Positions 33,458 through 48,492 of a stretch of DNA of 64,000 bases are shown piece after piece. The translations under genes were made by a program, and so were the position numbers. Position 1 is the first letter of the stretch, and each line of letters opens with the position of its first letter. The stretch is from Candidatus Fraserbacteria bacterium (GTDB taxonomy: Bacteria; Bipolaricaulota; Bipolaricaulia; RBG-16-55-9), in NCBI GenBank assembly GCA_037442925.1, contig JBBIPG010000002.1, positions 12,916-76,915 on the forward strand, written 5' to 3'. The notes beneath the pieces are model-generated. The model was not told the origin of the DNA and made no database searches. It saw nothing but the letters and a program-made list of their open reading frames with translations.

Positions 33458-33540
33458 GCCTAGCATGGAAAAACCATGATCTAGGCTAGCCCCATGGATG
33501 ATCTTCGTCATTTTACATCGCTATACGCAACACATACAAT
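33458..33540 (+). promoter_or_regulatory. Divergent control region: inverted repeat plus sigma70 promoter of the CODH/ACS cluster
   Basis: GCCTAG-CATGG-AAAAA-CCATG-AT-CTAGGC (33458-33486); TTTACA-17 nt-TACAAT (33512-33540). Confidence 0.6.
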
Positions 33541-33550
33541 ACAGACACGT

Positions 33551-34318
33551 ATGAAGATCGTTATATCTGGCAAGGGTGGTGTGGGCAAGACAACCGTGTG
33601 TGCACTCCTTGCCAAAGAGGCGGCGAGCAAGGGCTATCACGTGCTGGCTGTGGATGCTGATCCCAGCCCCACGCTGGCAGCGACCTTGGGAGTCTGTCAG
33701 GAACCCACGCCGCTCATCGAGTTCCGCGATCTGATTGAGGAACGCTTAGGCTCACTCGAGGGGTTCCTCCGGCTCAACCCGAAAGTGGACGACATCCCGG
33801 AGCGGTTTGCCATGGAGAAGGACGGAGTCAAGATCCTCGTCATGGGATCGATTCAGCAGGGTGGAGAAGGATGTGCCTGCCCTCAGAACACGTTCCTAAA
33901 GAGCCTCCTACAGCATATAGCTTTCGAGCGGGAGGATTGGGTCTTCATGGATCTGGAGGCCGGTTTGGAGCCCTTAGGCCGGGCCACCGTGCGTGGCTTC
34001 GATGTGCTACTCGTGGTCGTAGAGCCAGATAGCCGCAGTCTCACCACGGCCGGCCGAATCCACAACTTGGCTCATGACCTGGGGCTAACACACATCTATG
34101 CCATAAACAACAAGATTCGGGAAGCGGCGGATGTAGCGTTCGTTGAAGATCGGCTGCCTCGAGGAGTCACCTTACTCGGTGCCCTGCCCTATAGCGAACC
34201 GATTCGCCGAGCTGGCCGTGATGGGTCACTCCATAAGGACCCACTGGTTCAACAAGAAATCAGAAGAATCCTGGAGCAGCTGGAAGCTTCACACGGCATG
34301 GAGAGAGTTTCAGCCTAG
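33551..34318 (+). CDS. cooC: CooC-family Ni-insertion ATPase
   Basis: GKGGVGKT, DADP, GCACP, DLEAGLE..GR. Confidence 0.9.
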   Translation: MKIVISGKGGVGKTTVCALLAKEAASKGYHVLAVDADPSPTLAATLGVCQEPTPLIEFRDLIEERLGSLEGFLRLNPKVDDIPERFAMEKDGVKILVMGSIQQGGEGCACPQNTFLKSLLQHIAFEREDWVFMDLEAGLEPLGRATVRGFDVLLVVVEPDSRSLTTAGRIHNLAHDLGLTHIYAINNKIREAADVAFVEDRLPRGVTLLGALPYSEPIRRAGRDGSLHKDPLVQQEIRRILEQLEASHGMERVSA

Positions 34319-34336: not shown

Positions 34337-34852
34337 ATGGAGCGACTCTTCTGTGACCCACGAAAGTGCGTGGGCTGCCATTCGTGCGAACTGGCCTGCG
34401 CGCTGGAGCATACCCCCTCCAAAGATCTATTCCGGGCCGTCCTCACCGGGGAGTCGGGTCCGCCGCGTCGGCGCGTCCAGACGGTAGGGGACCGGCCCTA
34501 TCGGGTAGCGATTGGTGGCGTTGTTCTCTCACTGGGCTGCCATCACTGCGATCCTGCCCCTTGTGTCGATGCGTGCATCGCTGGGGCGATGCATAAAGAA
34601 AACGGCGAGACGATCTGCGATCTGGACAAGTGCGTAGGTTGCTGGATGTGCGTGATGAGCTGCCCGTATGGGGCCATCACGCCTCACGTCAAAGCACTGA
34701 AGTGTGATCTCTGCCCCGATCGTCGAGACAAGACCGGGCGATCTCGCTACGCTTGCATCGAGGCCTGCCCTACGGAGGCCCTCTTTGCCGGGACGTTTGA
34801 AGCATTCGAGAAGACCCTATCTCAGCCAATTGTTCAGGGGGTGGCCCGATGA
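34337..34852 (+). CDS. cooF: CooF-like 4x[4Fe-4S] electron-transfer protein
   Basis: CVGCHSCELAC, CHHCDPAPCVDAC, CVGCWMCVMSCP, KCDLC...ACIEACP. Confidence 0.88.
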   Translation: MERLFCDPRKCVGCHSCELACALEHTPSKDLFRAVLTGESGPPRRRVQTVGDRPYRVAIGGVVLSLGCHHCDPAPCVDACIAGAMHKENGETICDLDKCVGCWMCVMSCPYGAITPHVKALKCDLCPDRRDKTGRSRYACIEACPTEALFAGTFEAFEKTLSQPIVQGVAR

Positions 34853-36177
34853 GATACGTCATCATCGGTGCTTCCGCGGCAGGAGTCAGTGCGGCAGAGA
34901 CGCTGCGAAAGCATGAGCCCGCTGCTGAGATCGTCATGATCTCCGATGAACAACTCATATATTCCAAGCCGCTTCTCTCGTACTACTTGGCCGGGAAGCT
35001 AAAGGAAGAGCAACTGCTCTGGCGCGCGCCGGATTTCTTCGAGCGCAACCAGATTGAAGCGTTGCTGGGAGTCCGCGCCAGCGAATTAGCACCCCAGCAG
35101 AGCAAAGTTGTGCTCAAAGATGGCCGCGAGGTTTCGTACGATAGGCTTCTCTTGGCAAACGGGGCTTCTCCGAGATTTGCGGCGCTCGAAGGCCGCGAGA
35201 AGGCCGGGCTTTTTGGTCTGCGCAAGCTCGAAGATGCGAGGAGCATTTTGGCGCTACTGGCACGATCCCGGCGGGCGGTCGTGCTCGGCGGGGGCTTAGT
35301 CGGTCTTAAGGTCGCGGCGGCTCTCAAAGAGCGGGGTGTTGAAGTGACTGTCTTGGTGGATTCGCCTCATGTCCTCTCGCAAATGCTTGACGAGACCTCT
35401 GCGCGTATCTTCGAAACAGTGTTCGAGCAGAACGGTGTGCGCATCTTGTGCAAAGCTCGGCCAGTAGCGCTTACCGGAGGCGAGCGGGTTACCGGTGTCA
35501 AGCTAGCATCTGGCGAAGAATACCCGGCAGATCTGGTCGTTGCCGGTAAGGGCGTGGATGCTAACCTCGATCTGGCCAAAAGTGCTGGCATCGCCTGCGA
35601 TTATGCGATCTTGGTGGATGAGTATTGCCGCACGAATGTCGAGAATATCTACGCAGCGGGTGACGTGGCGCAAACGCGCGATGTGCTTCGGGGTGAACCG
35701 TGGGTGAACGCGCTCTGGCCCTGTGCCGTCGAGCAAGGGCGCATCGCTGCTCTCAACATGTTAGGTCAGAAGACGGCGTATCGGGGTTCCATGCGCATGA
35801 ACAGCGTCCAGTTCTTTGAGTTGCCTGTGATCTCAGCGGGATTGGCTGTCTTGACGCCGGGCCCGCTGGGAGGGCGATCCGGCGAGCATGACAAGACGAT
35901 CGAGACGCGACCCGCTCCAGCAGTCTACCGCAAGATCTTCTTAAAAGACGACACCATCGTGGGGTTCGTCCTCATCGGCGGTGAGCGGGACCTGGAAGCC
36001 GCAGGACTGCTGCGCATCTTGATGGAGCGTCGCATGGGGGTCGCAGGAATGGAGGAGGAGTTACTGGAGATAGGACCGGACCTGGGGCGCTTATTGCCAC
36101 GGATCGTGCAAGACCGTGAGCGATTCGTCGAGCGAGAATTTCAAGAACTCATCCAAACGGTGAAGGTGGGGGTGTGA
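34849..36177 (+). CDS. FAD/NAD(P)-dependent oxidoreductase (CODH-associated FNOR type)
   Basis: IIGASAAG, GGGLVG, IYAAGD, QGRIAALNM. Confidence 0.88.
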   Translation: MRYVIIGASAAGVSAAETLRKHEPAAEIVMISDEQLIYSKPLLSYYLAGKLKEEQLLWRAPDFFERNQIEALLGVRASELAPQQSKVVLKDGREVSYDRLLLANGASPRFAALEGREKAGLFGLRKLEDARSILALLARSRRAVVLGGGLVGLKVAAALKERGVEVTVLVDSPHVLSQMLDETSARIFETVFEQNGVRILCKARPVALTGGERVTGVKLASGEEYPADLVVAGKGVDANLDLAKSAGIACDYAILVDEYCRTNVENIYAAGDVAQTRDVLRGEPWVNALWPCAVEQGRIAALNMLGQKTAYRGSMRMNSVQFFELPVISAGLAVLTPGPLGGRSGEHDKTIETRPAPAVYRKIFLKDDTIVGFVLIGGERDLEAAGLLRILMERRMGVAGMEEELLEIGPDLGRLLPRIVQDRERFVEREFQELIQTVKVGV

Positions 36178-36181
36178 CGAT

Positions 36182-39100
36182 ATGTCAAAAATCATCGCGT
36201 CGGCGGCCATCCGCGGTGCACAACACTACTTCTCGGAGGCGGAGACCCAACTCAAACAAGCCATAGCGACCTACAAACCGGAGAAGAAGATCGCCTTTCC
36301 CAACACGGCGTATCATTTGCCTCTCATTTTTGCACTCACAGGACTTAAGGTCGAGACTCTTAAAGACTGTGAAGAAGCATTGAACCATGCCCGCTCTTTG
36401 CTTCCGCCATTGCCGGCGGATTCCCTGTGGCTGCCGTATTTGGGTGATGCACTGGATGCGGGCATTGCCACACTGATCGCGGAAGAGATCATTGAAGCGC
36501 TCAAGTATCTCGACCCGAGCTACAAGCCGGATCCGCCGTGGCTGGGCTTCACGGACGACTCGATCCTGAGAACTCAGGGAATTAAGTTGGTAGATGGGAG
36601 GATGCCGGGCTTCGCGGCCTGCGTGGGGGCGCTTCCCACCAATGGAGACGCTGTGGAACTGATTCGAGCCCTGCAGGAGCGAAGCATTCTTGTCTTCATT
36701 GCAGGCAGCTCCAATGGGCGCTCGATGGCCGAGCAATTGAACGAGGAGGGCATCGAGTTGGGCTGGGACACCTACGTCGTCCCCTATGGCAAGGAGATGA
36801 GCGCTGCAGTCTATGCTCTCAATTTCGCCGCTCGTGCGGCCATGACCTTCGGCGGGATCAAACCCGGCAGCTTTGAAGCGGCAAGAAAAATCTTGCTCTA
36901 CAACAAAGAGCGCGTCTTTGCGTTTGTGCTCGCACTGGGAGCTGACCCGAACGTCAATGGGAACGGCCAGCTGCTAACGGACGAGAAATATGCGACGGCT
37001 GCGGGTGCGATCAACTTTGGCTTTCCTGTCATTGCCGATGTGAACATTCCTCAGATCCTTCCCCGAGGCATCTGCACGTATGAGCACGTCGTCTCGGGAG
37101 TCTCGCTGGACAAGATCATCCAGAAGGCCGTCGAGGTGCGTGGCCTCAAACTCAAGCTGGCTCAGATTCCCATTCCGGTGCCCTACGGCGCAGGCTTCGA
37201 GGGCGAGCGCGTGCGCAAGGAGAATCTCTATGTCGAGTTCGGAGGCAAGTACAGCACAGCGTTTGAGCTCCTGCGAGCGCGACCGATGGATGAAGTGGAA
37301 GATGGGAAGATCGAACTCATCGGACCCGATTTGGATCAAGCCGAAGAAGGTGGGGCCATGCCCCTAGCCGTACTGGTCGATGTTGCTGGGCGCAACCTCA
37401 AGGCGGACTTTGAGCCCGTGCTGGAGAGAAGAATCCATCACTTCATCAGTTGCATCAATGGTGTGATGCACATCGGACAGCGAGACATCCCCTGGGTGCG
37501 CCTGAGCAAAGAAGCGTACGAGAAAGGCTTTCGCTTGAAGCATTACGGCGAAGTCCTCGTTGCCAAATTCAAAGACGACTTTGGTGCCATCGTCGACAAA
37601 GTGCAGGTGAAGCTCGTGACAGATCAGGCACAAGTCGATCAACTGCTGAAAGAAGCGCGAGAGATCTACCGACAACGCGACGAGCGCGTCATGGGTATGA
37701 AGGACGAAGACGTAGATACCTTCTACAGCTGCATCTTGTGTCAGAGCTACGCGCCCAATCACGTCTGCATCGTGACGCCTCAACGCTTGGGCCTTTGTGG
37801 TGCGTATACCTGGCTCGACTGCGGCGCGTCCTACGAGATGGACCCGCACGGCCCCAACAAGCCGGTCACTAAGGGCATCTGTCTCGATCCTGTCTTAGGG
37901 GAGTGGCAAGGGGTCAACGAGTACGTGCGCGTTGCCTCCAACGGCAATCTCGAAAGGGTCTCGATGTACTCGATCATGCAGGACCCCCAAACGTCGTGCG
38001 TTGTTGGGGAGACCGAACTGATCATCGACGGCGTTCCCACACCCCTTGGGGAGTTCATCGAGCAGCACCGGGGGGGCGAGCGCTACAGAGATTCAGCGGC
38101 CTTGACGCTGCGCGAAGGCAAAGCCCGCCTGGAGCCGCTGGTAGCTCTGCAGCGCTTCGATGCTCCTGAGGAACTGATTCGATTAGAAACGAAGTCCGGT
38201 GCTCAGCTGGTCTTGACGAAAGATCACGAGCTGGCAGTCGATCGGCCGGACGGCATGCGATGGGTTCGCGCGGACCAAATCAAAGCGGGCGAGCGCCTGA
38301 TCGCGCTCAAGCACTTGCGTCTGCCGGGACAGCTTCCCGCCGTGGTTGAGCTTTTGCCTAAGGACTTCCGATCTCGGAGGCAGCTGCCGAAGTCTTTAAG
38401 CCCTGAACTCTTCTATCTGCTGGGCTTGATCGCCAGTGACGGCTGCATCACACCGCGCGGCCGCTATGAGCGCATCATCCATTTCGTCAACACTGATGAA
38501 GAGCTTGTCCAGCAATTCACCGGGATTCATAAAGAGCTCTTCCCCGACTGCCATCTGGCGAGAAAGGTCAAATCGGCCAAGCCGACGACGCTGCGGGGAC
38601 GCACGATCAAGCCTACTAGGCCCTGCTTCCAGCTTTCTAGCAACAATTCAGTGTTGGGTTTGCTGGCAGAGCGCTTGGGGCTTCGCGTCGGTAGTCAAGG
38701 GCACTGGGAGCTGGGACGGCTGGCGAGCTTACCGGAGGCTCACATCGCAGCCTTCTTGGCAGGGGTCTTCGACGGCGACGGCAGCGTCCGCTTACGTCAA
38801 TATGCGGGAAAGTGGGACATTGCTGAGGGGTATGTGTGCATCGCCGACGAGCGGGCCGCGCGCCATCTGCAGCTCCTGTTGCGGCGGCTGGGCATTATAG
38901 GAAACCTCAACAAATCGGGATCGGTCTGGAAGATCGTGATGCACGGGGCGAATCTCCGAAAGTTCGCTGAGGTCATCCCGGCCAAGCACCCGGAGAAGCA
39001 GGCGGTCTTGGCGAGCGTTCGTCAGCTGCCGGGCAACGGCAGGCTCGACAAGACGCAAGAAGAAGTGCTGCCGTATTATGTGGGGCAGGCCTTGGCCCAG

Positions 39101-39781
39101 CTGCCCGCCTGCCACGAGGTTCTTAGCCCCAGCACGCTCTATTACTACCAGTCAGGCCGCTCGCGACCTGTAGCAGCCAATGTCCAGAAAGTGCTCGAAG
39201 CTGCTCCGGAGACTGGGCTGCTACGAGCCGCTCTGGAGACAGACTACTTCCTGGACACCGTGGTGACAGTGGAGACGGTGAGCAACACTGGGAAAGATCG
39301 CTATGAGCGCGTCTATTGCTTGACTCTTGCTGACATCCACTGCTTCTTCGCCAACACCATCCTGATCAAGAACTGCGGGTGCTTCGAGTGCATCGTTGCT
39401 GTGTTGCCTGAGACCAACGGGGTGATGGTCGCCAGCCGCGAATATCAGGGTGAGACGCCCATCGGCATGACCTTCTCGACGATGGCCGGCGAGGTCGGCG
39501 GCGGGGTGCAGACGCCGGGCTTTTTGGGCGTGGGCAAGCTCTATCTGACGAGCGAAAAATTTATCAGCGCTGAGGGCGGGATCAGGAGATTAGTGTGGAT
39601 GCCTAGCGAGCTTAAAGAAGAGATCAAAGAGAGACTCCAAAAGCGCTTGGAGGAGATCGGGATGCCCGAACTCTTCGACAAGATCGCCACTGAAAAAGAC
39701 GCCACGACGACGGACGAGTTGATGGCATTCTTGCAGAAAGTGGGACACCCGGTGCTCGAGATGGAAGCGATCATCGCCTAA
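36182..39781 (+). CDS. acsB: Acetyl-CoA synthase precursor containing an intein (740 aa after splicing)
   Basis: FPNTAYHLP, GFEGERVR, CILCQSYAPNHVC..RLGLCG (A-cluster Cys), PQTS|CGCFE, GGGVQTPGF, RLVWMP. Confidence 0.96.
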   Translation: MSKIIASAAIRGAQHYFSEAETQLKQAIATYKPEKKIAFPNTAYHLPLIFALTGLKVETLKDCEEALNHARSLLPPLPADSLWLPYLGDALDAGIATLIAEEIIEALKYLDPSYKPDPPWLGFTDDSILRTQGIKLVDGRMPGFAACVGALPTNGDAVELIRALQERSILVFIAGSSNGRSMAEQLNEEGIELGWDTYVVPYGKEMSAAVYALNFAARAAMTFGGIKPGSFEAARKILLYNKERVFAFVLALGADPNVNGNGQLLTDEKYATAAGAINFGFPVIADVNIPQILPRGICTYEHVVSGVSLDKIIQKAVEVRGLKLKLAQIPIPVPYGAGFEGERVRKENLYVEFGGKYSTAFELLRARPMDEVEDGKIELIGPDLDQAEEGGAMPLAVLVDVAGRNLKADFEPVLERRIHHFISCINGVMHIGQRDIPWVRLSKEAYEKGFRLKHYGEVLVAKFKDDFGAIVDKVQVKLVTDQAQVDQLLKEAREIYRQRDERVMGMKDEDVDTFYSCILCQSYAPNHVCIVTPQRLGLCGAYTWLDCGASYEMDPHGPNKPVTKGICLDPVLGEWQGVNEYVRVASNGNLERVSMYSIMQDPQTSCVVGETELIIDGVPTPLGEFIEQHRGGERYRDSAALTLREGKARLEPLVALQRFDAPEELIRLETKSGAQLVLTKDHELAVDRPDGMRWVRADQIKAGERLIALKHLRLPGQLPAVVELLPKDFRSRRQLPKSLSPELFYLLGLIASDGCITPRGRYERIIHFVNTDEELVQQFTGIHKELFPDCHLARKVKSAKPTTLRGRTIKPTRPCFQLSSNNSVLGLLAERLGLRVGSQGHWELGRLASLPEAHIAAFLAGVFDGDGSVRLRQYAGKWDIAEGYVCIADERAARHLQLLLRRLGIIGNLNKSGSVWKIVMHGANLRKFAEVIPAKHPEKQAVLASVRQLPGNGRLDKTQEEVLPYYVGQALAQLPACHEVLSPSTLYYYQSGRSRPVAANVQKVLEAAPETGLLRAALETDYFLDTVVTVETVSNTGKDRYERVYCLTLADIHCFFANTILIKNCGCFECIVAVLPETNGVMVASREYQGETPIGMTFSTMAGEVGGGVQTPGFLGVGKLYLTSEKFISAEGGIRRLVWMPSELKEEIKERLQKRLEEIGMPELFDKIATEKDATTTDELMAFLQKVGHPVLEMEAIIA
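37997..39373 (+). mobile_element. Intein with LAGLIDADG homing endonuclease (459 aa) in acsB
   Basis: Block A CVVGET; block B LVLTKDH; LAGLIDADG motifs LLGLIASDG and FLAGVFDGDG; block F VYCLTL...FFAN; block G ILIKN followed by Cys+1. Removal restores TS-CGCFE. Confidence 0.95.
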
Positions 39782-39792
39782 AGGAGCTTGTG

Positions 39793-41130
39793 ATGGCCAA
39801 ACTCACGGGAATAGAGATCTATAAACACCTGCCCAAGACTAACTGTGGTGACTGTAATTTCCCTACGTGTATGGCCTTCGCCATGCAAGTGGCCGCCAAG
39901 AAAGTGGGTCTCGAGCAGTGCCCACATGTCTCAGCCGAGGCGAAAGCGGCCCTTTCCGAAGCCCAAGCCCCACCGATGCGTGTGGTCACGATCGGGGCGG
40001 GAGATCGTGCGCTCAAAGTCGGCGGCGAGACGGTGTTGTTCCGACACGACGAGAAATTCCATCGCCCGACGGTCATTGCCATTCGCGTGCGGGATGATCT
40101 GCCGGAAGCGGAGCTGGCTCAGCGTATCGAGAAGATCAATCAGATCCAGTTCGTGCGCGTCGGACAGAAGATCGCCGTCAATGCCATCGCCGTCGAGCAA
40201 ACGAACAGTGGGAAGTTTGTGCCCTCCGTGAAGCTTGTCAGCGAAAGATCCCCACTCGTGCTCATCTTGATCAGCTCTGATCCTCGGGCTCTCACGGCTG
40301 CTCTTGAGATCTGTGCGGATCGACGCCCATTGATCCACGCGGCGACAAAAGAGAACTGTAAAGAACTGGCAGCGCTGGCAAAGCAGTTCAACTGCCCGTT
40401 GGCCGTCCGTGCCACATCTCTTGAAGAGCTGGCTGAACTTACTCACGAGATGAAAGCCTCAGGCGTCGAGGATCTCGTCCTGGACCCGAACGTACAGGGA
40501 ATGGCTGAGGGACTGACCAAACTGACACAACTCCGTCGTCTGGCCCTAGAGAAGACGTTTAGACCCTTAGGATTTCCCACCATGACGATCGTTCCTGGCA
40601 GTGACCCGTTCATGGATACGGCTCAGGCGGCGGCGTACATCTGCAAGTACGCCAGCATCATCGTGATGGATGGCTGCGAACGCTGGCAGCTGTTGCCCAT
40701 TTTGACAGCGCGCCAGAACATCTACACCGACCCGCAAGTGCCCAACGCTGTCGAGGCCAAGCTCTACAAAGTGGGCGAGCCAGGATCTCAATCACCCGTA
40801 CTGGTTACCACAAACTTCGCGCTCACCTACTTCACCGTCGAAGGCGAAGTGGAGAACAGCCGCGTCCCGGCCTACATCGCCGTGGTGGATACCGGGGGAT
40901 TGGGTGTGCTCAATGCCTACGCAGACGACAAGCTCACAGCGGAGGGAATCGTCAAGACCGTCAAGGCCTCTGGAATCATGGATCAAGTTTCCCATAAGAA
41001 ACTCGTCATCCCCGGATTAGTCGCCGTGCTCAAGGGCGAGATCGAGGACGAAGGAGGCTGGGAAGTGTTAGTTGGTCCGGAGGAAGCAGCGGGCTTGCCC
41101 GCCTACTTGCGAAACGATTGGAAAGCGTAA
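39793..41130 (+). CDS. acsC: Corrinoid Fe-S protein large subunit
   Basis: LPKTNCGDCNFPTCMAFA..CPH, GGETVLFRH, RQNIYTDPQ, VTTNFALTY. Confidence 0.95.
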   Translation: MAKLTGIEIYKHLPKTNCGDCNFPTCMAFAMQVAAKKVGLEQCPHVSAEAKAALSEAQAPPMRVVTIGAGDRALKVGGETVLFRHDEKFHRPTVIAIRVRDDLPEAELAQRIEKINQIQFVRVGQKIAVNAIAVEQTNSGKFVPSVKLVSERSPLVLILISSDPRALTAALEICADRRPLIHAATKENCKELAALAKQFNCPLAVRATSLEELAELTHEMKASGVEDLVLDPNVQGMAEGLTKLTQLRRLALEKTFRPLGFPTMTIVPGSDPFMDTAQAAAYICKYASIIVMDGCERWQLLPILTARQNIYTDPQVPNAVEAKLYKVGEPGSQSPVLVTTNFALTYFTVEGEVENSRVPAYIAVVDTGGLGVLNAYADDKLTAEGIVKTVKASGIMDQVSHKKLVIPGLVAVLKGEIEDEGGWEVLVGPEEAAGLPAYLRNDWKA

Positions 41131-41146
41131 AGGCAGGGGACTCGAG

Positions 41147-43057
41147 ATGCCCAAAGTCGTCTTTCACCCAGATGACGTGAGCGTCGAAGTCGAGCGCGGG
41201 GTGACGCTGCAAGCCGCCGCGAAGGCAGCCGGTGTTGAGCTGGCCAGCATCTGCGGCGGGGATGGCATCTGCGGTCGCTGCCGAGTGATCGTGCGAGACG
41301 GCAACATCCAGGCTTCTCCCACTACCTTGCTCAGCCGCGACGAGATCCAAAGAGGGTATGTACTCGCGTGCCAGACGAAGATCACCGGAGACGTCGAAAT
41401 CGAAGTGCCCCCAGAAACACGCACGGAAGAGGGGCAGATTCTCATCGACATCGACGCCCAACGCTTCCGGGCCCTCTATCAGGAGGAGAAGATCTCTTTT
41501 CGGCATGAGCCCTTGGTGCAAAAGCTCTACGCGGAGTTGCCTCGGCCCACGCTGCAAGATAATCTGGCGGACCACCAGCGGCTCTACCGCGAAATCCGCC
41601 GCCACAAGAACTACCAGATCATGCAGACGGGCCTCAAGGTCTTACAGACTCATCCCAAGCTCTTTCGCACGAGTCGCTGGAAGATCACGGCTACCCTGGG
41701 TATGCGCGGCGGGACCATCGAAGTGCTCCAAGTCGAGGGCGGCAATACCGCAGAGCGCAACTACGGCATCGCCGTGGACGTGGGAACTTCCACCGTCGTC
41801 GCTCACTTGCTCGATCTGAATACGGGCAAGACGGTGGATGCCGAAGCCATGTACAACTCACAGCGTGCGTACGGCGAAGAAGTGACACGGCGCATCATCT
41901 ATGCAGAACGCGGCGGACTGGACCAGCTGCAAAAGACAGTCGTCAACGATATCAACAACTTGATCACGGCACTTGTGGCGCGCAACCAGATTGCACAACA
42001 CGACTGTCTCACGGTTCTTTGCGCCGGCAACACGACGATGATGCATCTCGTATTGGGTCTGGACCCCACCTACATCCGCCGCGATCCCTACGTTTCCTGT
42101 TCGACGGCGCCTCCGCCGGTGCGAGCGGCCGAAGTGGGAATTCAGATCAACCCTCGCGGGCTTCTGTACTGCCTGCCGGCCATCGGGGGCTGGGTGGGCG
42201 GAGATGTGACTGGTGGGATTCTGGCGACGGGACTTCACGAGTCGGATGAGACCGTGATGCTGATCGATGTCGGCACCAACGGAGAGATCGTCATCGGCAA
42301 TAGAGAGTGGATGGTGGCCTGTTCGGCCTCCGCCGGTCCGGCCTTTGAGGGCTCGGGAGTGCAGTGCGGCATGAAAGCAAGCCGCGGCGCGATTGAGCGC
42401 GTACAGATCTCATCGGACGGAAACGTGCTCTATAAGAGTGTGGGCAACGTCAAACCCAAAGGCATCTGTGGCTCGGGGCTCATCGATCTGGTCGCGGCGC
42501 TTTTCACAGCTGATCTCATTGATCGGTCCGGAGCGCTGCAGCCGGAAGCCAGCCCCAGAGTCCGTGAGCGCAACGGCTTGCTCGAGTTCGTTGTCGTTCC
42601 CACCCAGCGCTCTGGCACCGGCAAGGATATCGTCATCACTCAAGCCGACATCGAGAATCTACTGAGTGCCAAAGCCGCCATCTACGCCGGGGCACACATC
42701 TTAATCAAATCGCTCGATCTCGACTTCAACGATATCGAAAGAGTCTTTTTAGCCGGAGGCTTCGGGAACTATCTGGACCGCGAGAAGGCGATCACGATTG
42801 GCCTGATTCCCGATCTACCCCTGGAAAAGATTCGATTTGTCGGTAACACGTCCATCATCGGGGCCAAACTGGCGCTGCTCTCTCAAGAAGCGTTCGAGCG
42901 CAGCTACGAGATCGCGAGGAACGTGACGTATTATGATCTCATTAGCTTTCCGCACTATTACGAGGAGTTTCTCGCGGCGAAATTCCTGCCGCATACGGAG
43001 CTGGAACGTTTTCCATCTGTGCAGGAGAGACTGAAATCAAAAGCGAGGATCTTCTAG
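41147..43057 (+). CDS. acsV: Reductive activator of corrinoid protein (RACo, ASKHA ATPase with [2Fe-2S])
   Basis: CGGDGICGRC...LACQ, DVGTST, DVGTNGE, AGPAFEG, GICGSG, LAGGFG. Confidence 0.92.
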   Translation: MPKVVFHPDDVSVEVERGVTLQAAAKAAGVELASICGGDGICGRCRVIVRDGNIQASPTTLLSRDEIQRGYVLACQTKITGDVEIEVPPETRTEEGQILIDIDAQRFRALYQEEKISFRHEPLVQKLYAELPRPTLQDNLADHQRLYREIRRHKNYQIMQTGLKVLQTHPKLFRTSRWKITATLGMRGGTIEVLQVEGGNTAERNYGIAVDVGTSTVVAHLLDLNTGKTVDAEAMYNSQRAYGEEVTRRIIYAERGGLDQLQKTVVNDINNLITALVARNQIAQHDCLTVLCAGNTTMMHLVLGLDPTYIRRDPYVSCSTAPPPVRAAEVGIQINPRGLLYCLPAIGGWVGGDVTGGILATGLHESDETVMLIDVGTNGEIVIGNREWMVACSASAGPAFEGSGVQCGMKASRGAIERVQISSDGNVLYKSVGNVKPKGICGSGLIDLVAALFTADLIDRSGALQPEASPRVRERNGLLEFVVVPTQRSGTGKDIVITQADIENLLSAKAAIYAGAHILIKSLDLDFNDIERVFLAGGFGNYLDREKAITIGLIPDLPLEKIRFVGNTSIIGAKLALLSQEAFERSYEIARNVTYYDLISFPHYYEEFLAAKFLPHTELERFPSVQERLKSKARIF

Positions 43058-43840
43058 ATGGCTTTCACCATTGGGGTTGCCGGTAAAGGCGGCGTGGGGA
43101 AGACGACCCTGGCAGGTTTGATCGCACGATTGCTGTTGGAGCGCGGCGATGGGCCCGTTTTGGCGATTGACGCCGATCCCAACACCAACTTTCATCAAGT
43201 TCTGGGGCTCCACGTGGAACAGACCATCGGCGAACTGCGCGAAGAGACTCTCAAGAAAATAAAAGACTTACCAGCTGGCATCTCCAAGGATCAGTATCTC
43301 GAGTACGGCCTGCACCAGTGTCTCGTCGAGGACAATGGCATCGATCTATTGGCCATGGGACGAGGCGAGGGTCCCTTCTGCTACTGTGCCGTCAACCACG
43401 TACTGCGACGCTACATGGATCTTCTGGCCAAGAACTACAAGTACATCGTCATGGACAACGAGGCTGGCCTGGAACATCTCTCACGACGAACCACACAAGA
43501 TGTTGATGTCTTGCTCATAGTGAGCGAATGCTTTCCCGTGGCACTTCAGGCTGCCGCCAGAATCAGCAAGATCGCCGATGAACTCAAATTACGCATCGGT
43601 CAGAGATTCCTCGTGCTAAACCATGTGAACGACGGAACCCTGTCTGGGCCGGCCCAGGAAGCTCTACAAGAGAGCATTGGGCAGGCGGGGCTCATGCTCA
43701 TCGGGGAGATCCCCCGCGATGAGGCGATTCGGCGCCTCAGCGTGGAAGGCAAACCGCTGAGCGAACTACCCGCCTCCTCGCCGGCCAAGTCAGCCGTGAA
43801 GGCGATTCTTGAAAGAGTGCTGGAGAAAGGAGGCCCCTGA
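43058..43840 (+). CDS. acsF: Second CooC-family ATPase (ACS maturation)
   Basis: GKGGVGKT, DADPN, CYC, DNEAGLEHLSRRT. Confidence 0.85.
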   Translation: MAFTIGVAGKGGVGKTTLAGLIARLLLERGDGPVLAIDADPNTNFHQVLGLHVEQTIGELREETLKKIKDLPAGISKDQYLEYGLHQCLVEDNGIDLLAMGRGEGPFCYCAVNHVLRRYMDLLAKNYKYIVMDNEAGLEHLSRRTTQDVDVLLIVSECFPVALQAAARISKIADELKLRIGQRFLVLNHVNDGTLSGPAQEALQESIGQAGLMLIGEIPRDEAIRRLSVEGKPLSELPASSPAKSAVKAILERVLEKGGP

Positions 43841-44820
43841 TGCCGGTAGCCATTCCCGATGTGAAGAAGACTTGGACGAACGCGATCAACGTGGTGACAC
43901 TGGGGGCCACGCGCGAAGAGGGGGGGACCCGCACGTCGAAGGTGACGGTAGGCGGCGCGACTTCGCTCTCCTTCCATCATTTTGAGGGCACGATGCCCCA
44001 CCCACCTGCGATCGCCATGGAGGTCTGGGATATTGCCCCCACCGACTGGCCCCAGATTCTGACAGAACCCTTCGCGGATGTGCTGAACGACCCCGGGCTC
44101 TGGGCCAAAAAGTGCGTCGAGCAGTACGGTGCCGAGTTGATCTGTCTGCGTCTTATGGGGTGTGATCCCATTCGTGGCAATCGCGGCCCTCAAGAGGCCG
44201 TGCCAGCGGTGAAGCGAGTACTCGCGTCCGTGGGTGTGCCACTCATCATTTGGGGTACGGGCAACGATGAGAAAGATAATGAGATCTTCCCCGCTGTGGC
44301 GGAAGCCGCAGCGGGTGAGAATTGCTTATTAGGCACGATCACGGAAGACAACTACAAGACGCTCGTTGCCGTCTGCACGGCGTACAAACATAAGCTGATC
44401 GCCGAGTCGCCTTGTGATGTCAACATTGCGAAGCAAGTGAACATCCTTGCCACAGATATGGGCTTCAAGCCGGAAGACATAGTGATCTATCCCACGAGCG
44501 CGGCATTGGGCTATGGACTCGAATACGTCTATTCCATCATGGAGCGGGCCAGGCTCGCGGCGTTACGCGGCGACAAGATGCTCTCGCAACCCATGATCTG
44601 TGATATTGGCATTGAGACATGGGGCGTGAAAGAAGCCAAGGCAAGTGAGCAAGAACTGCCCGAATGGGGTGAGCAGAAGGAGCGCGCGCCGCTGTGGGAA
44701 GCGACAACGGCATACATCTATTTGCTGACGGGGGCAGATCTTCTTGTGCTGCGCCATCCACGGGCTGTCGCCAGCGTGCGGCAAGCGATCCAGCAACTCA
44801 TGGGAGCCGGAGGCGGTTAG
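43840..44820 (+). CDS. acsD: Corrinoid Fe-S protein small subunit
   Basis: DVNIAKQVN, LGYGLEY.YS.MER.R, GD.ML, LRHP. Confidence 0.93.
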   Translation: MPVAIPDVKKTWTNAINVVTLGATREEGGTRTSKVTVGGATSLSFHHFEGTMPHPPAIAMEVWDIAPTDWPQILTEPFADVLNDPGLWAKKCVEQYGAELICLRLMGCDPIRGNRGPQEAVPAVKRVLASVGVPLIIWGTGNDEKDNEIFPAVAEAAAGENCLLGTITEDNYKTLVAVCTAYKHKLIAESPCDVNIAKQVNILATDMGFKPEDIVIYPTSAALGYGLEYVYSIMERARLAALRGDKMLSQPMICDIGIETWGVKEAKASEQELPEWGEQKERAPLWEATTAYIYLLTGADLLVLRHPRAVASVRQAIQQLMGAGGG

Positions 44821-44821
44821 C

Positions 44822-45625
44822 ATGATCCTCATTGGCGAGCGAATCAACGGCTCTTTCAAAGACGTCGGGGCTGCCATCAAAGAGAGGAACAAAGAACCCA
44901 TTCAAGACTGGGCAAAGAAGCAGACCGAAGCGGGAGCGGATTATCTCGATGTCAACTTGGGCGCGGTATCGAAGAATCCCGCTGACTTCGCCTGGCTCAT
45001 TCAGACCGTTTGTGAAGCTGTGCCCACGCCGCTTTCGATCGATTCGCTCAAGCTCGATCTGGTGCGCGCGGGACTGGAAGCTTATAGAGAATTCGGAGGC
45101 AGGCGACCTGTCATTATCAACAGCACGACCGCCGAAGAGAGCAAACTGATGCCGTTAGTCGAGTTGGCGGTTCAGTACAACTCAGGTCTCATTGGCGTCG
45201 TGATGGATGAGCGTGGCAGCCCGCAAGATATTGACCGACGAGTTGAGCTGGGAGCGAAGATCTTTGCCATCGCGAGCGAAGCGGGTCTACCTCCGGAACG
45301 AGTCTATCTCGACCCCATCGTCATGCCGGTCAAGTTTATGCAAGAGCAGGGCAAGAACGTCCTAGAAGCCATAAGGCAGTTCGCGATGATCTCCGACCCT
45401 CCGCCGCATATCTCTATCGGGCTCAGTAATATCTGCTCCAAAGCCCAAGAACGCTCGCTCATCACTCGGACGTTTCTCGTCATGGCCATGGCGGCTGGCT
45501 GCGATGCCGCAATCTGCAATGTGATGGACGCGGAACTCGTAAACGCTGTAGCCACAGCGGAGTTGATTCTCAACAAAGAAATATACAGCGACAGCTACTT
45601 GAAGGCATATCGAAAGCGGGGCTGA
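44822..45625 (+). CDS. acsE: Methyl-THF:corrinoid protein methyltransferase
   Basis: IGERING, YLDVN, LSIDS, INST, DP, GLSN (pterin-binding barrel); operon context. Confidence 0.9.
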   Translation: MILIGERINGSFKDVGAAIKERNKEPIQDWAKKQTEAGADYLDVNLGAVSKNPADFAWLIQTVCEAVPTPLSIDSLKLDLVRAGLEAYREFGGRRPVIINSTTAEESKLMPLVELAVQYNSGLIGVVMDERGSPQDIDRRVELGAKIFAIASEAGLPPERVYLDPIVMPVKFMQEQGKNVLEAIRQFAMISDPPPHISIGLSNICSKAQERSLITRTFLVMAMAAGCDAAICNVMDAELVNAVATAELILNKEIYSDSYLKAYRKRG

Positions 45626-45626
45626 A

Positions 45627-46526
45627 ATGAGACTTACAGGTGTACATCTGCTCCTGACGTACGAGTGCAATCTCGAGTGCGATCATTGCTTCGTCTGGGG
45701 CAGTCCCTGGCAACGTGGCACGATGACTCTCAAGACCATCCGTGAGATCCTACAGCAAGCTAAGGATCTTGGAACGGTAGAGTGGATCTACTTTGAGGGT
45801 GGCGAACCCTTTCTCTACTACGCCACTCTGCTCAAAGGGGTGCAAGTGGCTGCACGCCTGGGCTTTCAAGTGGGGATCGTATCGAATGGCTACTGGGCCA
45901 CCGATGCGCAAGATGCTCTAGAGTGGCTAAGACCCTTCGCGGGTCTTGTGCAAGACTTATCGATCAGTAGCGACCTCTATCACTGGAAGGAGAGCCTCAG
46001 CCAGCAAGCCAAGCACATCTGCTCCGCGGCGGGAAAGCTAGACATCCCCATGCAAATCCTCCACATCGCGGCACCCGAAGTCGCGGATGCCCCATCCGCG
46101 GTGGGACAACTTCCGCCGGGTACGTCGAAGGTCATGTATCGTGGGCGTGCGGCAGAGAAGTTGGCAAACAAGACTCCACGCCGACCTTGGACAGAGTTCA
46201 CGGCTTGTACGCATGAGGACCTCCGTGAGCCAGGGCGGGTACACATCGACCCCTTTGGGAATGTCCACATCTGCCAGGGGATCGCGCTGGGTAACGTCTA
46301 CCAAACACCGCTGAGGAGCATGTGCAGGAAGTACGATCCGGATACTCACCCGATTGCCGGTCCGTTGCTTTCGGGCGGTCCCGCAGAGCTTGTGCGCCGC
46401 TACAAGCTGGCTCACGAAGCACGATGTGCCGATTCATGCCATCTGTGCTATGAGGCCCGTCGGGCTCTGCGCAGTCGCTTTCCGGATGTCCTAAAACCGG
46501 ATCAGATGTATGGAGTGGTGCCGTGA
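45627..46526 (+). CDS. Radical SAM protein with C-terminal Cys-rich (SPASM/twitch-like) region
   Basis: CNLECDHC, GGEPF, SNGYWA, HIDPFGNVHICQG, CADSCHLC. Confidence 0.88.
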   Translation: MRLTGVHLLLTYECNLECDHCFVWGSPWQRGTMTLKTIREILQQAKDLGTVEWIYFEGGEPFLYYATLLKGVQVAARLGFQVGIVSNGYWATDAQDALEWLRPFAGLVQDLSISSDLYHWKESLSQQAKHICSAAGKLDIPMQILHIAAPEVADAPSAVGQLPPGTSKVMYRGRAAEKLANKTPRRPWTEFTACTHEDLREPGRVHIDPFGNVHICQGIALGNVYQTPLRSMCRKYDPDTHPIAGPLLSGGPAELVRRYKLAHEARCADSCHLCYEARRALRSRFPDVLKPDQMYGVVP

Positions 46527-46584
46527 ACGTGCTAGGTACAGCAGTCGAAAGACTCGCGTTGACCATCTTGGGGAAGGGGGAGTC

Positions 46585-48492
46585 ATGAAAGAAAAAAGCG
46601 TAGATCGAGCCTCACAAGAGATGCTCGAGCACGCAAAGCAAGAGCATCTGGAGACAGCTTGGGATCGCTGGGAACTTCAACAACCCCAGTGCGGCTTCGG
46701 ACAACTGGGTTTATGTTGCCGGATCTGCAATATGGGTCCGTGTCGCATTGACCCGTTTGGGAGCGGACCCAAGCGCGGCGTATGTGGTGCTGACGCCGAT
46801 ACGTTCGTTGCTCGCCATCTAACCCGCATGATCGCTGCCGGGACGGCAGCGCACTCGGACCACGGGCGCGATGTGGCACATACGCTGCTGCTGGCTGCGG
46901 AGGGCCATCGCGGCTATCGCATCAAAGATCCACGGAAGCTGCGTAAAGTCGCTGCCGAGTTTGGCATTGGGGCAGACACGAAGAGCGATGCAGAGATTGC
47001 CAAGGCGTTGGCAGAAAAGGCGTTGGCGGAGTTCGGCCAACAAGAGGGAGAACTGACACTAACTCGACGTGCTCCCAAGGCGCGGCAAGAGCTCTGGCGC
47101 AAGCTAGGAATCATGCCGCGCGGGATCGACCGCGAAGTCGTGGAGATGATGCACCGCACGACGATGGGGGTAGACACAGATTATAAGAACATCTTGCTCC
47201 AAGGCATGAGGACATCGTTGGCTGATGGCTGGGGTGGCTCGATGCTCGCCACAGACATTCAAGACATTCTCTTTGGGACTCCAATGCCTCTACGTTCCCG
47301 CGTGAATCTGGGAGTGCTAAAGAAGGACGAGGTCAACGTCGTCGTTCATGGCCACGAACCCATCTTGTCAGAGATGCTCGTGGTAGCCAGCCGTGACCCA
47401 GAGCTGGTGAAGTTAGCTCAGCAAAAGGGCGCTCGCGGAATCAATATCACCGGCATCTGCTGCACGGCCAATGAGATTCTCATGCGCCACGGCATCCCGA
47501 TTGCAGGCAACTTCTTGCAGCAGGAGCTGGCACTGGCCACGGGAGCCGTGGATGCCATGATTGTGGACGTGCAATGTGTCATGCCCGCTCTGGCGAGTCT
47601 CGCTCAGTGCTTCCACACAAAGCTCATTGCCACCTCACCCAAGGCGAAATTCCCCAATACAGACTTTGTGGAGTTCCGCGAGGAACGCGCCATTGAGGCA
47701 GCGAAAGAGATCATCCAGCGCGCGATAGAGAACTACCCGAATCGCGAGCCGCGTCGCATGCAGATCCCGGATGCCTCGATGGATCTGATCGCTGGCTTCA
47801 CTTCTGAGTCTGTATTTCGATTCTTAGGCGGACGCTATCGAGCTACCTACCGGCCGCTTAACGATGCCATCATGGACGGGAGGCTCCGCGGAGCCGTCGG
47901 CGTCGTCGGCTGCAACAACCCCAATATCACCCATGACTGGGGGCACCTGACGCTCACCAAAGAACTCCTGAAGAACGATGTACTAGTCGTGTCAAGTGGC
48001 TGCTCAGCCATCGCGGATGCCAAGTTCGGCCTGCTTAGGCCGGAGGCGGCCCACAATTACGCCGGACCCGGCTTGCGTGAGATCTGCGAGACGGTAGGCA
48101 TACCGCCGGTGCTCCACGTGGGAGCCTGCGTGGATAACTCACGCATCTTGACGACGCTGATTGAGATCGTGGGTGAGGGTGGCTTAGGAGACGACTTCGC
48201 GAAACTGCCTGTGGCGGGATCTGCACCTGAGTGGATGAGCGAAAAGGCCGTGGCCATCGGGTTCTATTTCGTCGCTTCCGGAGCTCTGGTGCACTTTGGG
48301 ACACCCCAGCCGATCTACGGCAGCAAGAACGTGACAGAGTTCTTGACGAAAGATGTCGAGACGCTTGTGGGTGGCAAGTTCGCCTTCGAGCCTGATCCAC
48401 AAAAGGCGGCCAAACTGATCCTCGAGCATCTAGATCGCAAGCGGGCCGACTTGAAGCTTCGAGAACCGATGTATACTCCTGTGTACGCGTAG
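46585..48492 (+). CDS. cooS: Anaerobic [NiFe] CO dehydrogenase catalytic subunit (AcsA/CooS)
   Basis: QCGFG..GLCCRICNMGPC...GVCG, HSDH, HGHEP, CCT, VDVQC, GCNN, SGC, GACVDN, EWMSEKA. Confidence 0.96.
   Translation: MKEKSVDRASQEMLEHAKQEHLETAWDRWELQQPQCGFGQLGLCCRICNMGPCRIDPFGSGPKRGVCGADADTFVARHLTRMIAAGTAAHSDHGRDVAHTLLLAAEGHRGYRIKDPRKLRKVAAEFGIGADTKSDAEIAKALAEKALAEFGQQEGELTLTRRAPKARQELWRKLGIMPRGIDREVVEMMHRTTMGVDTDYKNILLQGMRTSLADGWGGSMLATDIQDILFGTPMPLRSRVNLGVLKKDEVNVVVHGHEPILSEMLVVASRDPELVKLAQQKGARGINITGICCTANEILMRHGIPIAGNFLQQELALATGAVDAMIVDVQCVMPALASLAQCFHTKLIATSPKAKFPNTDFVEFREERAIEAAKEIIQRAIENYPNREPRRMQIPDASMDLIAGFTSESVFRFLGGRYRATYRPLNDAIMDGRLRGAVGVVGCNNPNITHDWGHLTLTKELLKNDVLVVSSGCSAIADAKFGLLRPEAAHNYAGPGLREICETVGIPPVLHVGACVDNSRILTTLIEIVGEGGLGDDFAKLPVAGSAPEWMSEKAVAIGFYFVASGALVHFGTPQPIYGSKNVTEFLTKDVETLVGGKFAFEPDPQKAAKLILEHLDRKRADLKLREPMYTPVYA

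Follow-up and report, generated by a model that had tools for sequence, protein, structure and literature searches.

A putative homing intein directly before a nickel-bridging cysteine of acetyl-CoA synthase in a Candidatus Fraserbacteria genome

Characterised inteins such as PI-PkoII (2cw7), PI-PfuI (1dq3) and PI-SceI (1vde) combine a splicing domain and a homing endonuclease in one polypeptide and are hosted by a DNA polymerase, a ribonucleotide reductase and VMA1, respectively. Insertion at conserved catalytic residues is general for selfish inteins. Acetyl-CoA synthase (ACS) is the key enzyme of the Wood-Ljungdahl pathway. The window analysed here is a 64,000-nucleotide stretch of DNA from a Candidatus Fraserbacteria bacterium (contig JBBIPG010000002.1, positions 12,916 to 76,915), and its acsB gene for ACS carries an insert with the same two-function architecture at 37997-39373. 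With a probability of roughly 0.8, the insert is a self-excising LAGLIDADG homing intein, a selfish element located directly before the nickel-bridging Cys595 (numbering of the Moorella thermoacetica enzyme). In a 2015 survey across sequenced genomes, 61.5% of the bacterial intein hosts belonged to replication, recombination and repair and 21.7% to nucleotide metabolism; ACS is named neither in its main text nor in two of its three supplementary files (PMC4760082). A full-text literature search found, among the matches listed, no description of an intein in ACS, AcsB or CdhC (subscription journals and InBase lay outside its scope). This agrees with a preliminary description of the window, made from its letters alone, which knew of no characterised case; yet the family is abundant in public metagenome data.

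The open reading frame (ORF) of the host gene matches the NCBIfam profile NF040764 (bacterial CODH/ACS subunit alpha/beta equivalog) with 1017.6 bits against a cut-off of 800. The Pfam domains PF18537, PF03598 and PF19436 also match, each match being split in two by a gap. HMMER alignment to the solved ACS of M. thermoacetica (1oao_C; E 2.5e-203) pairs residues 12-606 of the query with residues 28-595 of the chain, and residues 1064-1197 with 594-728. Residues 606-1064, encoded by 37997-39373, form an in-frame insert of 459 amino acids exactly between Moorella Ser594 and Cys595. Its translation is free of stops, begins with Cys and ends with Asn. The junction codons are tcg followed by tgc (37994-37999), and aac followed by tgc ggg tgc (39371-39382). 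Without the insert, 1199-459 = 740 amino acids remain. The parts of the gene are:

36182 to 39781, plus strand: acsB precursor ORF, 1199 aa plus stop, a bacterial-type acetyl-CoA synthase with a single intein.
36182 to 37996, plus strand: N-extein, residues 1-605, ending in ...IMQDPQTS.
37739 to 37741, plus strand: codon of Cys520 (Moorella Cys509), the second ACS intein site, 'site a', empty in the window.
37997 to 39373, plus strand: intein from Cys1 to Asn459, 459 aa, with profile, family and fold matches.
39374 to 39382, plus strand: Cys-Gly-Cys starting at position +1 (Moorella Cys595-Gly596-Cys597), ligands of both A-cluster nickel atoms by the alignment and excerpts of PMC10299331.
39374 to 39781, plus strand: C-extein, 135 aa plus stop.

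All six cysteines of the A-cluster are present. The cubane ligands C517-x2-C520-x8-C529-x9-C539 lie in the N-extein and correspond to Moorella 506, 509, 518 and 528; C1065-G-C1067 corresponds to 595 and 597. According to excerpts of a published account, Cys595 and Cys597 bridge both the proximal and the distal nickel, and Cys509 bridges the cubane and the proximal nickel (PMC10299331). Splicing is predicted to yield the junction ...MQDPQTS-CGCFECIVAVLPETNGVMVASR and the junction peptide VSMYSIMQDPQTSCGCFECIVAVLPETNGVMVASR. The preliminary description had placed a LAGLIDADG intein directly before the first Cys of the nickel-binding Cys-Gly-Cys; profile, fold and the alignment to 1oao_C bear this out. 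Its position, the 459-aa in-frame insert, Cys1, TxxH, the two LAGLIDADG motifs, the terminal Asn and the 740-aa remainder were all correct. Its assignment of the motif to the distal nickel was right in naming a nickel ligand and too narrow in naming one atom, as Cys595 ligates both (PMC10299331, in the excerpts mentioned). The +1 Cys is Moorella Cys595, so the predicted second splicing nucleophile is itself a nickel ligand, as had been proposed.

A homolog search with the intein region and its flanks as query yielded 129 proteins with E<1e-3, and all protein counts given here come from the best 120. Labels with P denote public homolog proteins, G genomes (G000 is the window genome), L loci and X public runs. 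The site before Cys595, site b, held an insert in 100 of the 105 AcsB homologs with both flanks mapped and was empty in five, a ratio that is not a frequency among ACS genes because the intein itself was the query. Full-size inserts of 447-571 aa (91 proteins) were accompanied by nine mini-inteins of 145-224 aa. Site a, before Cys509, carried an intein of 461-554 aa in 22 of the 120 proteins. Seventeen of these 22 were occupied at both sites, the double-intein proteins having 1437-1839 aa. Among the GTDB species representatives, 66 loci were confirmed, and 62 had the junction of intein Asn followed directly by Cys-Gly-Cys-Phe (42 full-length, 11 mini and 9 interrupted by contig ends). The 62 loci carry at least nine phylum labels: Chloroflexota (35), Omnitrophota (8), Bipolaricaulota (3), Planctomycetota (3), Actinomycetota (3), Aerophobota (2), Bacillota (2), Fraseribacteriota (1) and Poribacteria (1), with four unlabelled. 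All 62 intein-bearing representatives are metagenome-assembled genomes (MAGs) by record title. The nearest loci share 78-81% identity with the window and bear the labels Bipolaricaulota, Acetothermia or Fraserbacteria, so that its organism is probably a member of the Bipolaricaulota.

The insertion is exact. Seven relatives of the same order have an empty site and an acsB of exactly 740 codons, the empty alleles for which the preliminary description had proposed a search. Their DNA reads ...CAGACGTCG directly joined to TGCGGGTGC..., and each of three occupied alleles compared has exactly 1377 nt extra between the Ser and the Cys codon. The window genome is a 2.07-Mb metagenome bin of 86 contigs, an origin that would allow an assembler to have joined a foreign insert to acsB. 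Such a chimera is refuted by contigs from two runs of different studies. In run X1, a 1651-nt contig covers 37903-39553 with 0 mismatches and bridges both junctions; in run X5, a 1499-nt contig covers 37971-39469 with 85 mismatches (~94% identity) and does the same. The junction-spanning check proposed earlier thus came out in favour of the insert. Moreover, the architecture recurs with identical junction residues in 100 protein clusters and 62 species-representative genomes. Contigs of runs X2 and X3 match the window without differences at 36873-37526 and within the intein, but none is long enough to span a junction by 31 letters, and they were not used as support. Run X1 also contained an empty-site contig of a more abundant relative, which joins 37998 directly to 39377 at a depth of 117. 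The occupied allele had a depth of 17 in the same community.

Profile and structure comparisons assigned the insert to bifunctional inteins. Its parts are:

37997 to 38377, plus strand: N-terminal part of the splicing (Hint) domain, intein residues 1-127, kept in the P0095 mini-intein.
38207 to 38239, plus strand: block B, LVLTKDHELAV, with Thr74 and His77 (T74-K-D-H77), both in 100/100 family members.
38378 to 39301, plus strand: linker and LAGLIDADG homing-endonuclease insert, intein residues 128-435, cleanly missing in the P0095 mini-intein.
38417 to 38443, plus strand: LAGLIDADG motif 1, LLGLIASDG, residues 141-149, with Asp148 in 90/91 full-length members and Glu in the remaining one.
38756 to 38782, plus strand: LAGLIDADG motif 2, LAGVFDGDG, residues 254-262, with Asp259 in 91/91 and Asp261 in 91/93 filled cells.
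39308 to 39373, plus strand: blocks F and G, RVYCLTLADIHCFFANTILIKN, with Cys441 at block F position 4 (F:4), the block F His at His448, the penultimate Lys458 and the terminal Asn459.

PF14528 (LAGLIDADG_3) matches the insert in two stretches with 65.8 bits (cut-off 22.5), and TIGR01445 (intein N-terminal region) with 29.4 bits (cut-off 24.5). A 27-row intein profile matches solved inteins, namely KlbA (2jmz, 1.9e-10), VMA (7qsu, 1.9e-9) and PI-PkoII (2cw7, 2.8e-9), and further CDC21 and RadA inteins, hedgehog Hint domains and I-MsoI/I-DmoI. A single-sequence AlphaFold2 model of the intein was discarded for its predicted local distance difference test score (pLDDT) of 33.7. It was replaced by a model from a 51-row alignment with a pLDDT of 94.0 and a predicted template-modelling score (pTM) of 0.93. 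In Foldseek, the best match of this model is the TliVMA intein (7qss, E 4.4e-22, template-modelling score 0.72/0.76), followed by PI-PkoII (2cw7, 4.2e-19), PI-PfuI (1dq3, 3.7e-18), PhoVMA and PI-SceI (1vde, 2.9e-10). The endonucleases I-DmoI, I-Tsp061I, I-SceI and E-DreI were matched as well. By its modelled fold, the insert is a bifunctional intein in which a two-motif LAGLIDADG endonuclease interrupts the Hint splicing domain. Both motifs are present, and their acidic residues are found in 90-91 of the 91 full-length members. The mini-intein of P0095, from the same site and the same clade, has 151 aa and corresponds to residues 1-127 plus 436-459 of the window intein. This natural deletion therefore marks the limits of the splicing and endonuclease parts.

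Cys1, Thr74, His77, the terminal Asn459 and the +1 Cys-Gly-Cys are invariant in 100/100 aligned members. The window intein has the features of a class 1 intein: an exact in-frame insert, Cys1, TxxH, terminal Asn with Cys+1, and profile and fold matches. The block F Asp and the penultimate His of this class are missing, a deviation that the preliminary description had overlooked. The penultimate residue is Lys458 in the window intein and Lys in 85, Ala in 13, Glu in one and His in one of the 100 members. At F:4, a position identified from the register shared with the other inteins of this genome (VYDL vs VYCL), the window intein has Cys441 in place of the normal Asp; the family has Asn in 94 and Cys in six. 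These six members form the clade of the window intein and combine Cys441 with Cys449, a position held by Ser in 61/100. At the block F His position, 66 of the 100 have His and 33 have Asn, and 33/100 members have none of the three usual helpers (block F Asp, block F His and penultimate His). A second Cys directly follows Cys1 (CC...) in 18/100 site b inteins, mostly with exteins ending in PETS.

A block F Asp is common in inteins and not obligatory, and inteins that splice without a penultimate His exist. According to excerpts of a published account, the Asp helps in splicing steps 1 and 2, and cyclisation of Asn is aided by the two His residues (PMC10663303). The unusual residues are themselves conserved (Lys 85/100, Asn 94/100), which points to a functional variant and not to decay; this family likely relies on helper residues other than the usual ones. 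An insert that no longer splices, leaving acsB a pseudogene or its product inactive, is therefore very improbable, even though block F Asp and penultimate His are missing. The frame of 1199 codons is open and the rest of the acs operon is intact. Selection is purifying, with ratios of nonsynonymous to synonymous substitution (dN/dS) of 0.04-0.09 in the exteins and 0.11 in the intein, and the nucleophiles and block B residues are kept in 100/100 members.

Class 3 inteins have no nucleophile at position 1 and use a triad of Trp in block B, Cys at F:4 and Thr in block G. This class was considered on account of the block F Cys and rejected: Cys1 is present, residue 79 is Leu and not Trp, and residue 457 is Ile and not Thr. 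The Asn at F:4 in 94/100 relatives also contradicts it. A role for the block F Cys in class 3 inteins is described in excerpts of PMC10663303.

The window genome encodes at least seven other inteins, in DnaB, dCTP deaminase, an ARC/Mpa-type AAA ATPase, SufB, V/A-ATPase A, RtcB and MutS. Their genes lie on contigs C33, C59 (two genes), C29, C6, C7 and C67 of G000 (loci L011-L016), the dCTP deaminase gene being interrupted by a contig end. LAGLIDADG_3 was matched in six of the seven, the exception being RtcB. The block F Asp is present in 7/7 and the penultimate His in 6/7, with Ser in RtcB. In its helper residues, the ACS intein is the odd one out in this genome. At least eight intein hosts occur in one small genome of 2.07 Mb.

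The distribution of the intein was followed within the order. Occupancy was read from the contiguity of the two extein matches per genome. Site b was occupied in five (G000, G021, G016, G013 and G026), empty in 17 and undetermined in one. Occupied and empty sites occur within genera: two occupied, 11 empty and one undetermined in genus g10, and two occupied and one empty in genus g8. The endonuclease part has a dN/dS of 0.10-0.11 in three pairs, compared with 0.04-0.09 for the exteins of L001-L002. Some pairs share exteins of 85-92% identity yet have inteins of only 46-55% identity. Conversely, P0018 and P0050 have exteins of 62% and inteins of 75% identity.

Intein and extein trees of 30 rows were calculated by a quick search with the LG+G4 model. 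The intein clade of P0018, P0050 and P0054 has a support of 100 in the Shimodaira-Hasegawa-like approximate likelihood ratio test (SH-aLRT) and is rejected by the extein data in the approximately unbiased test (p-AU 0.0074). The clade of P0017, P0025 and P0019 is borderline (p-AU 0.044), and that of P0089, P0087, P0086 and P0047 is not rejected (p-AU 0.476). Occupied and empty sites within genera, mini-inteins, a dN/dS of ~0.11 and the clade with p-AU 0.0074 support mobility over evolutionary time, in line with the mobile element proposed in the preliminary description.

A further hint comes from P0003, a public MAG protein of 1741 aa. It differs from the window AcsB at 54 positions in residues 1-328 and at two in residues 329-1199 (274/328 and 869/871 identical), and it has an additional site a intein of 544 aa before Cys520 (Moorella Cys509). 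The mosaic break coincides with the boundary of the N-terminal domain and the CdhC-like core. The genome of P0003 is not among the 35 genomes of the order that were compared; with the boundaries of the exchanged segment read at protein level only, the comparison indicates a recent exchange of an intein-bearing segment together with a recent gain or loss at site a.

Several observations weigh against a selfish homing intein in the window. The homolog sample was collected with the intein as query, and the occupancy of 100/105 is biased by this. PF14890 matches the insert with 35.1 bits, just below its cut-off of 35.8. Two of the usual splicing-assist residues, block F Asp and penultimate His, are replaced, and for this reason conservation has to speak for splicing competence: splicing of the window intein is predicted from the conserved catalytic residues and purifying selection. 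Most major groups are shared by the intein and extein trees, which are largely congruent. The composition of the intein is host-like, with a GC content at third codon positions (GC3) of 0.72 vs 0.66-0.79 in neighbouring genes. Between G000 and G021, which belong to different families, the intein has a nucleotide identity of 78.4%, like the exteins (77.9% and 83.3%), and neither sliding windows nor overall identities revealed a co-conversion tract in this pair. Recent mobility of the window copy is not favoured by this comparison. The synonymous divergence pS is 0.55 for the intein and 0.70 for the N-extein, a difference that was not interpreted because the values are near saturation.

These points fit a resident, immobile element that is fixed and vertically inherited, with the endonuclease kept for folding or for a maturase-like or DNA-binding role and with empty alleles arising by occasional precise loss. 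The equal divergence of intein and exteins in G000 and G021 without a co-conversion signal, the host-like composition and the largely congruent trees, including the clade of P0089, P0087, P0086 and P0047 (p-AU 0.476), would all be expected of it. It is nevertheless unlikely, though it is the strongest of the competing explanations. Purifying selection acts on the catalytic Asp residues and on the endonuclease part as a whole, for which continued homing is the simplest explanation in a LAGLIDADG intein, and one transfer is supported (p-AU 0.0074). Occupied and empty alleles were found together in one sample (X1), and the P0003 mosaic with its extra site a intein points to recent exchange and to recent gain or loss at site a. 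The selfish homing intein is therefore preferred, as an element that seems to have resided in this order for a long time and to be lost or gained sporadically.

Co-conversion between G000 and G021 was considered and dropped, as no tract was found in which G021 is nearer to G000 than to its own genus. Extein residue -5 (37982-37984) is Asp or Glu in every occupied locus of this clade that was checked and Asn in seven empty ones (loci L001-L026). As a mark of occupancy, Asp at this position gave no clean rule; G015:C79 is empty yet has Asp. The pattern could be a short co-conversion scar, an adaptation to splicing or plain ancestry. The acsB genes of G001:C80, from the same genus, and G010:C11 have in-frame stops and shifted pieces with site b empty, and are either decaying genes or assembly errors. 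Within bin G015, two acsB fragments (G015:C30 and G015:C79; L019) differ at site a, which is empty in one and occupied in the other; they represent either a polymorphic population or two copies. In a Chloroflexia MAG, the intein at L048:2501-4092 has 1592 nt and 14 stops and may be a decaying, frameshifted copy or reflect indels of long reads. In the hot-spring metagenome of run X7, contigs of a ~83%-identical relative follow the window to the Cys520 codon and then read V-P-T-G-E-E-I..., as a site a intein begins; the N-junction of site b is spanned by further contigs of this run.

The family includes proteins of unusual build and annotation. In P0067, P0072, P0075, P0077 and P0078 (1723-1839 aa), the intein-bearing AcsB is fused C-terminally to a domain of the CdhD family (PF03599, corrinoid protein subunit). 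P0096-P0098 (972-1017 aa) are short CdhC-like forms without the N-terminal domain, with an intein at the same site that ends in Lys-Asn; the query is matched from residues 331-339 onwards, with 42-49% identity in the exteins. Public annotation gives whole ACS proteins the name 'LAGLIDADG family homing endonuclease', and some genes are called from a Met three residues before the intein (P0085, P0088 and P0093; L055, L061 and L072). Proteins starting with 'MTAC...' suggested a naturally split acsB with a split intein. This was rejected, since at the three loci inspected the N-extein reads on upstream in an open frame without interruption; the 'MTAC...' proteins (P0085, P0088 and P0093) are therefore artefacts of gene calling.

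The proposed mechanism follows the class 1 pathway. An N-S acyl shift at Cys1, aided by Thr74 and His77, would start splicing. The +1 Cys, later a nickel ligand, would then take over the N-extein on its thiol. Cyclisation of Asn459 would release the intein, and an S-N shift would join Ser594 to Cys595. The product would be a normal ACS of 740 residues, formed before assembly of the A-cluster. At the DNA level, the putative target of the endonuclease in empty acsB alleles is ...CAGACGTCG / TGCGGGTGC...; repair of the cut would copy the intein into them. The intein would sit at Cys595 because the DNA there is invariant and the needed nucleophile is supplied, and not because of enzyme regulation.

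The genes around acsB form an acs cluster:

33494 to 34318: cooC-like ATPase.
34849 to 36177: pyridine-nucleotide disulfide oxidoreductase, directly upstream of acsB.
39790 to 41130: acsC.
41072 to 43057: RACo.
43058 to 43840: second cooC/acsF-like ATPase.
43840 to 44820: acsD.
44744 to 45625: acsE.
46510 to 48492: CODH.

The acs operon around the intein-bearing acsB is otherwise complete, and acsB was found only once in the 94%-complete assembly. Active ACS should therefore need splicing in the host organism, a view already taken in the preliminary description. Since a domain of 459 residues between Ser594 and Cys595 cannot coexist with the assembled A-cluster, splicing must precede insertion of the cluster and nickel. 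We infer that ACS maturation proceeds by splicing first and metal insertion after.

The location next to metal ligands raises the question of conditional splicing, in which oxidation or metal binding would hold the precursor unspliced and ACS would be completed only in a reducing environment or once nickel insertion has reached the right point. Candidates for such a switch are a disulfide among Cys1, Cys441, Cys449, Cys+1 and Cys+3, or Ni, Zn or Cu on the same thiols. There are precedents in excerpts of PMC10663303, a disulfide trap in the intein of the oxygen-labile MoaA of Pyrococcus abyssi and the inhibition of other inteins by Zn and Cu. At the splice junction of the ACS intein, Cys1, Cys+1 and Cys+3 are gathered. 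The clade of the window intein has changed F:4 from Asn to Cys and has Cys449 (6/100 members), and both ACS intein sites precede cluster-bridging cysteines, Cys509 and Cys595. On the other hand, none of the analyses made here gave evidence of regulation. The extra cysteines are no family trait, with Asn at 441 in 94/100 and Ser at 449 in 61/100, and the last 14 residues of the N-extein contain no Cys, so a trap of the MoaA type is not available. Many close relatives do without the intein, and selfish inteins are expected at invariant catalytic residues anyway. A link with the upstream disulfide oxidoreductase (34849-36177) was considered and rejected: the gene was present in 9/9 loci of relatives checked, seven of which are empty. 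The redox or metal switch raised in the preliminary description found neither support nor refutation, and such control appears doubtful, somewhat more so than a resident element. Slightly less probable still is a broader version, in which both ACS intein families, each with Lys in place of the usual penultimate His and site b also without the block F Asp, act as a maturation checkpoint rather than as mere parasites, with splicing gated by thiol redox state or by Ni or Zn on Cys1, Cys+1 and Cys+3. If true, an oxygen-labile, nickel-costly enzyme would be completed only in reducing, nickel-replete cells, and redox- or metal-dependent splicing would add a new level of control to an ancient pathway.

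The known host range of inteins is extended by a large family, unreported in the literature searched, in a central metalloenzyme of carbon fixation. The family provides a natural set of class-1-type inteins without block F Asp and penultimate His, useful for studies of catalysis, and is altogether a useful system for intein mechanism and ACS maturation. It also explains ACS genes that are mislabelled or started inside the gene, which matters for the metabolic reconstruction of Chloroflexota, Omnitrophota and Bipolaricaulota bins.

Among described systems, the archaeal VMA inteins (TliVMA 7qss/7qsu and PhoVMA 7qst) are the best structural and the best single-sequence Protein Data Bank matches of the ACS intein. 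Like it, they have a Hint domain with a two-motif LAGLIDADG insert, Cys1 and a terminal Asn. The identity is 17-19%, their host is the V-type ATPase and the organisms are archaeal; the penultimate Lys and the Cys or Asn at F:4 set the ACS intein apart from them. The homing cycle of PI-PkoII, PI-PfuI and PI-SceI fits the distribution of the ACS intein with occupied sites, empty sites and endonuclease-less derivatives; these three are characterised, whereas splicing and cleavage by the ACS intein are predicted. The P. abyssi MoaA intein likewise resides in an oxygen-labile metalloenzyme, and in its trap Cys1 forms a disulfide with a Cys of the N-extein (PMC10663303, in excerpts), for which the last 14 N-extein residues of ACS offer no partner. 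The site a inteins of ACS (for example in P0003, P0109 and G025) share the host, the position before a cluster-bridging Cys and Cys1 with those of site b, and 20 of the 22 end in Lys-Asn. They form a lineage separate from the window intein, with ~26% identity over the endonuclease part. As a class-1-type LAGLIDADG intein, the window intein belongs to a known kind and is no surprise in this respect; its helper residues are variant, and its host is a protein for which the literature searched describes no intein.

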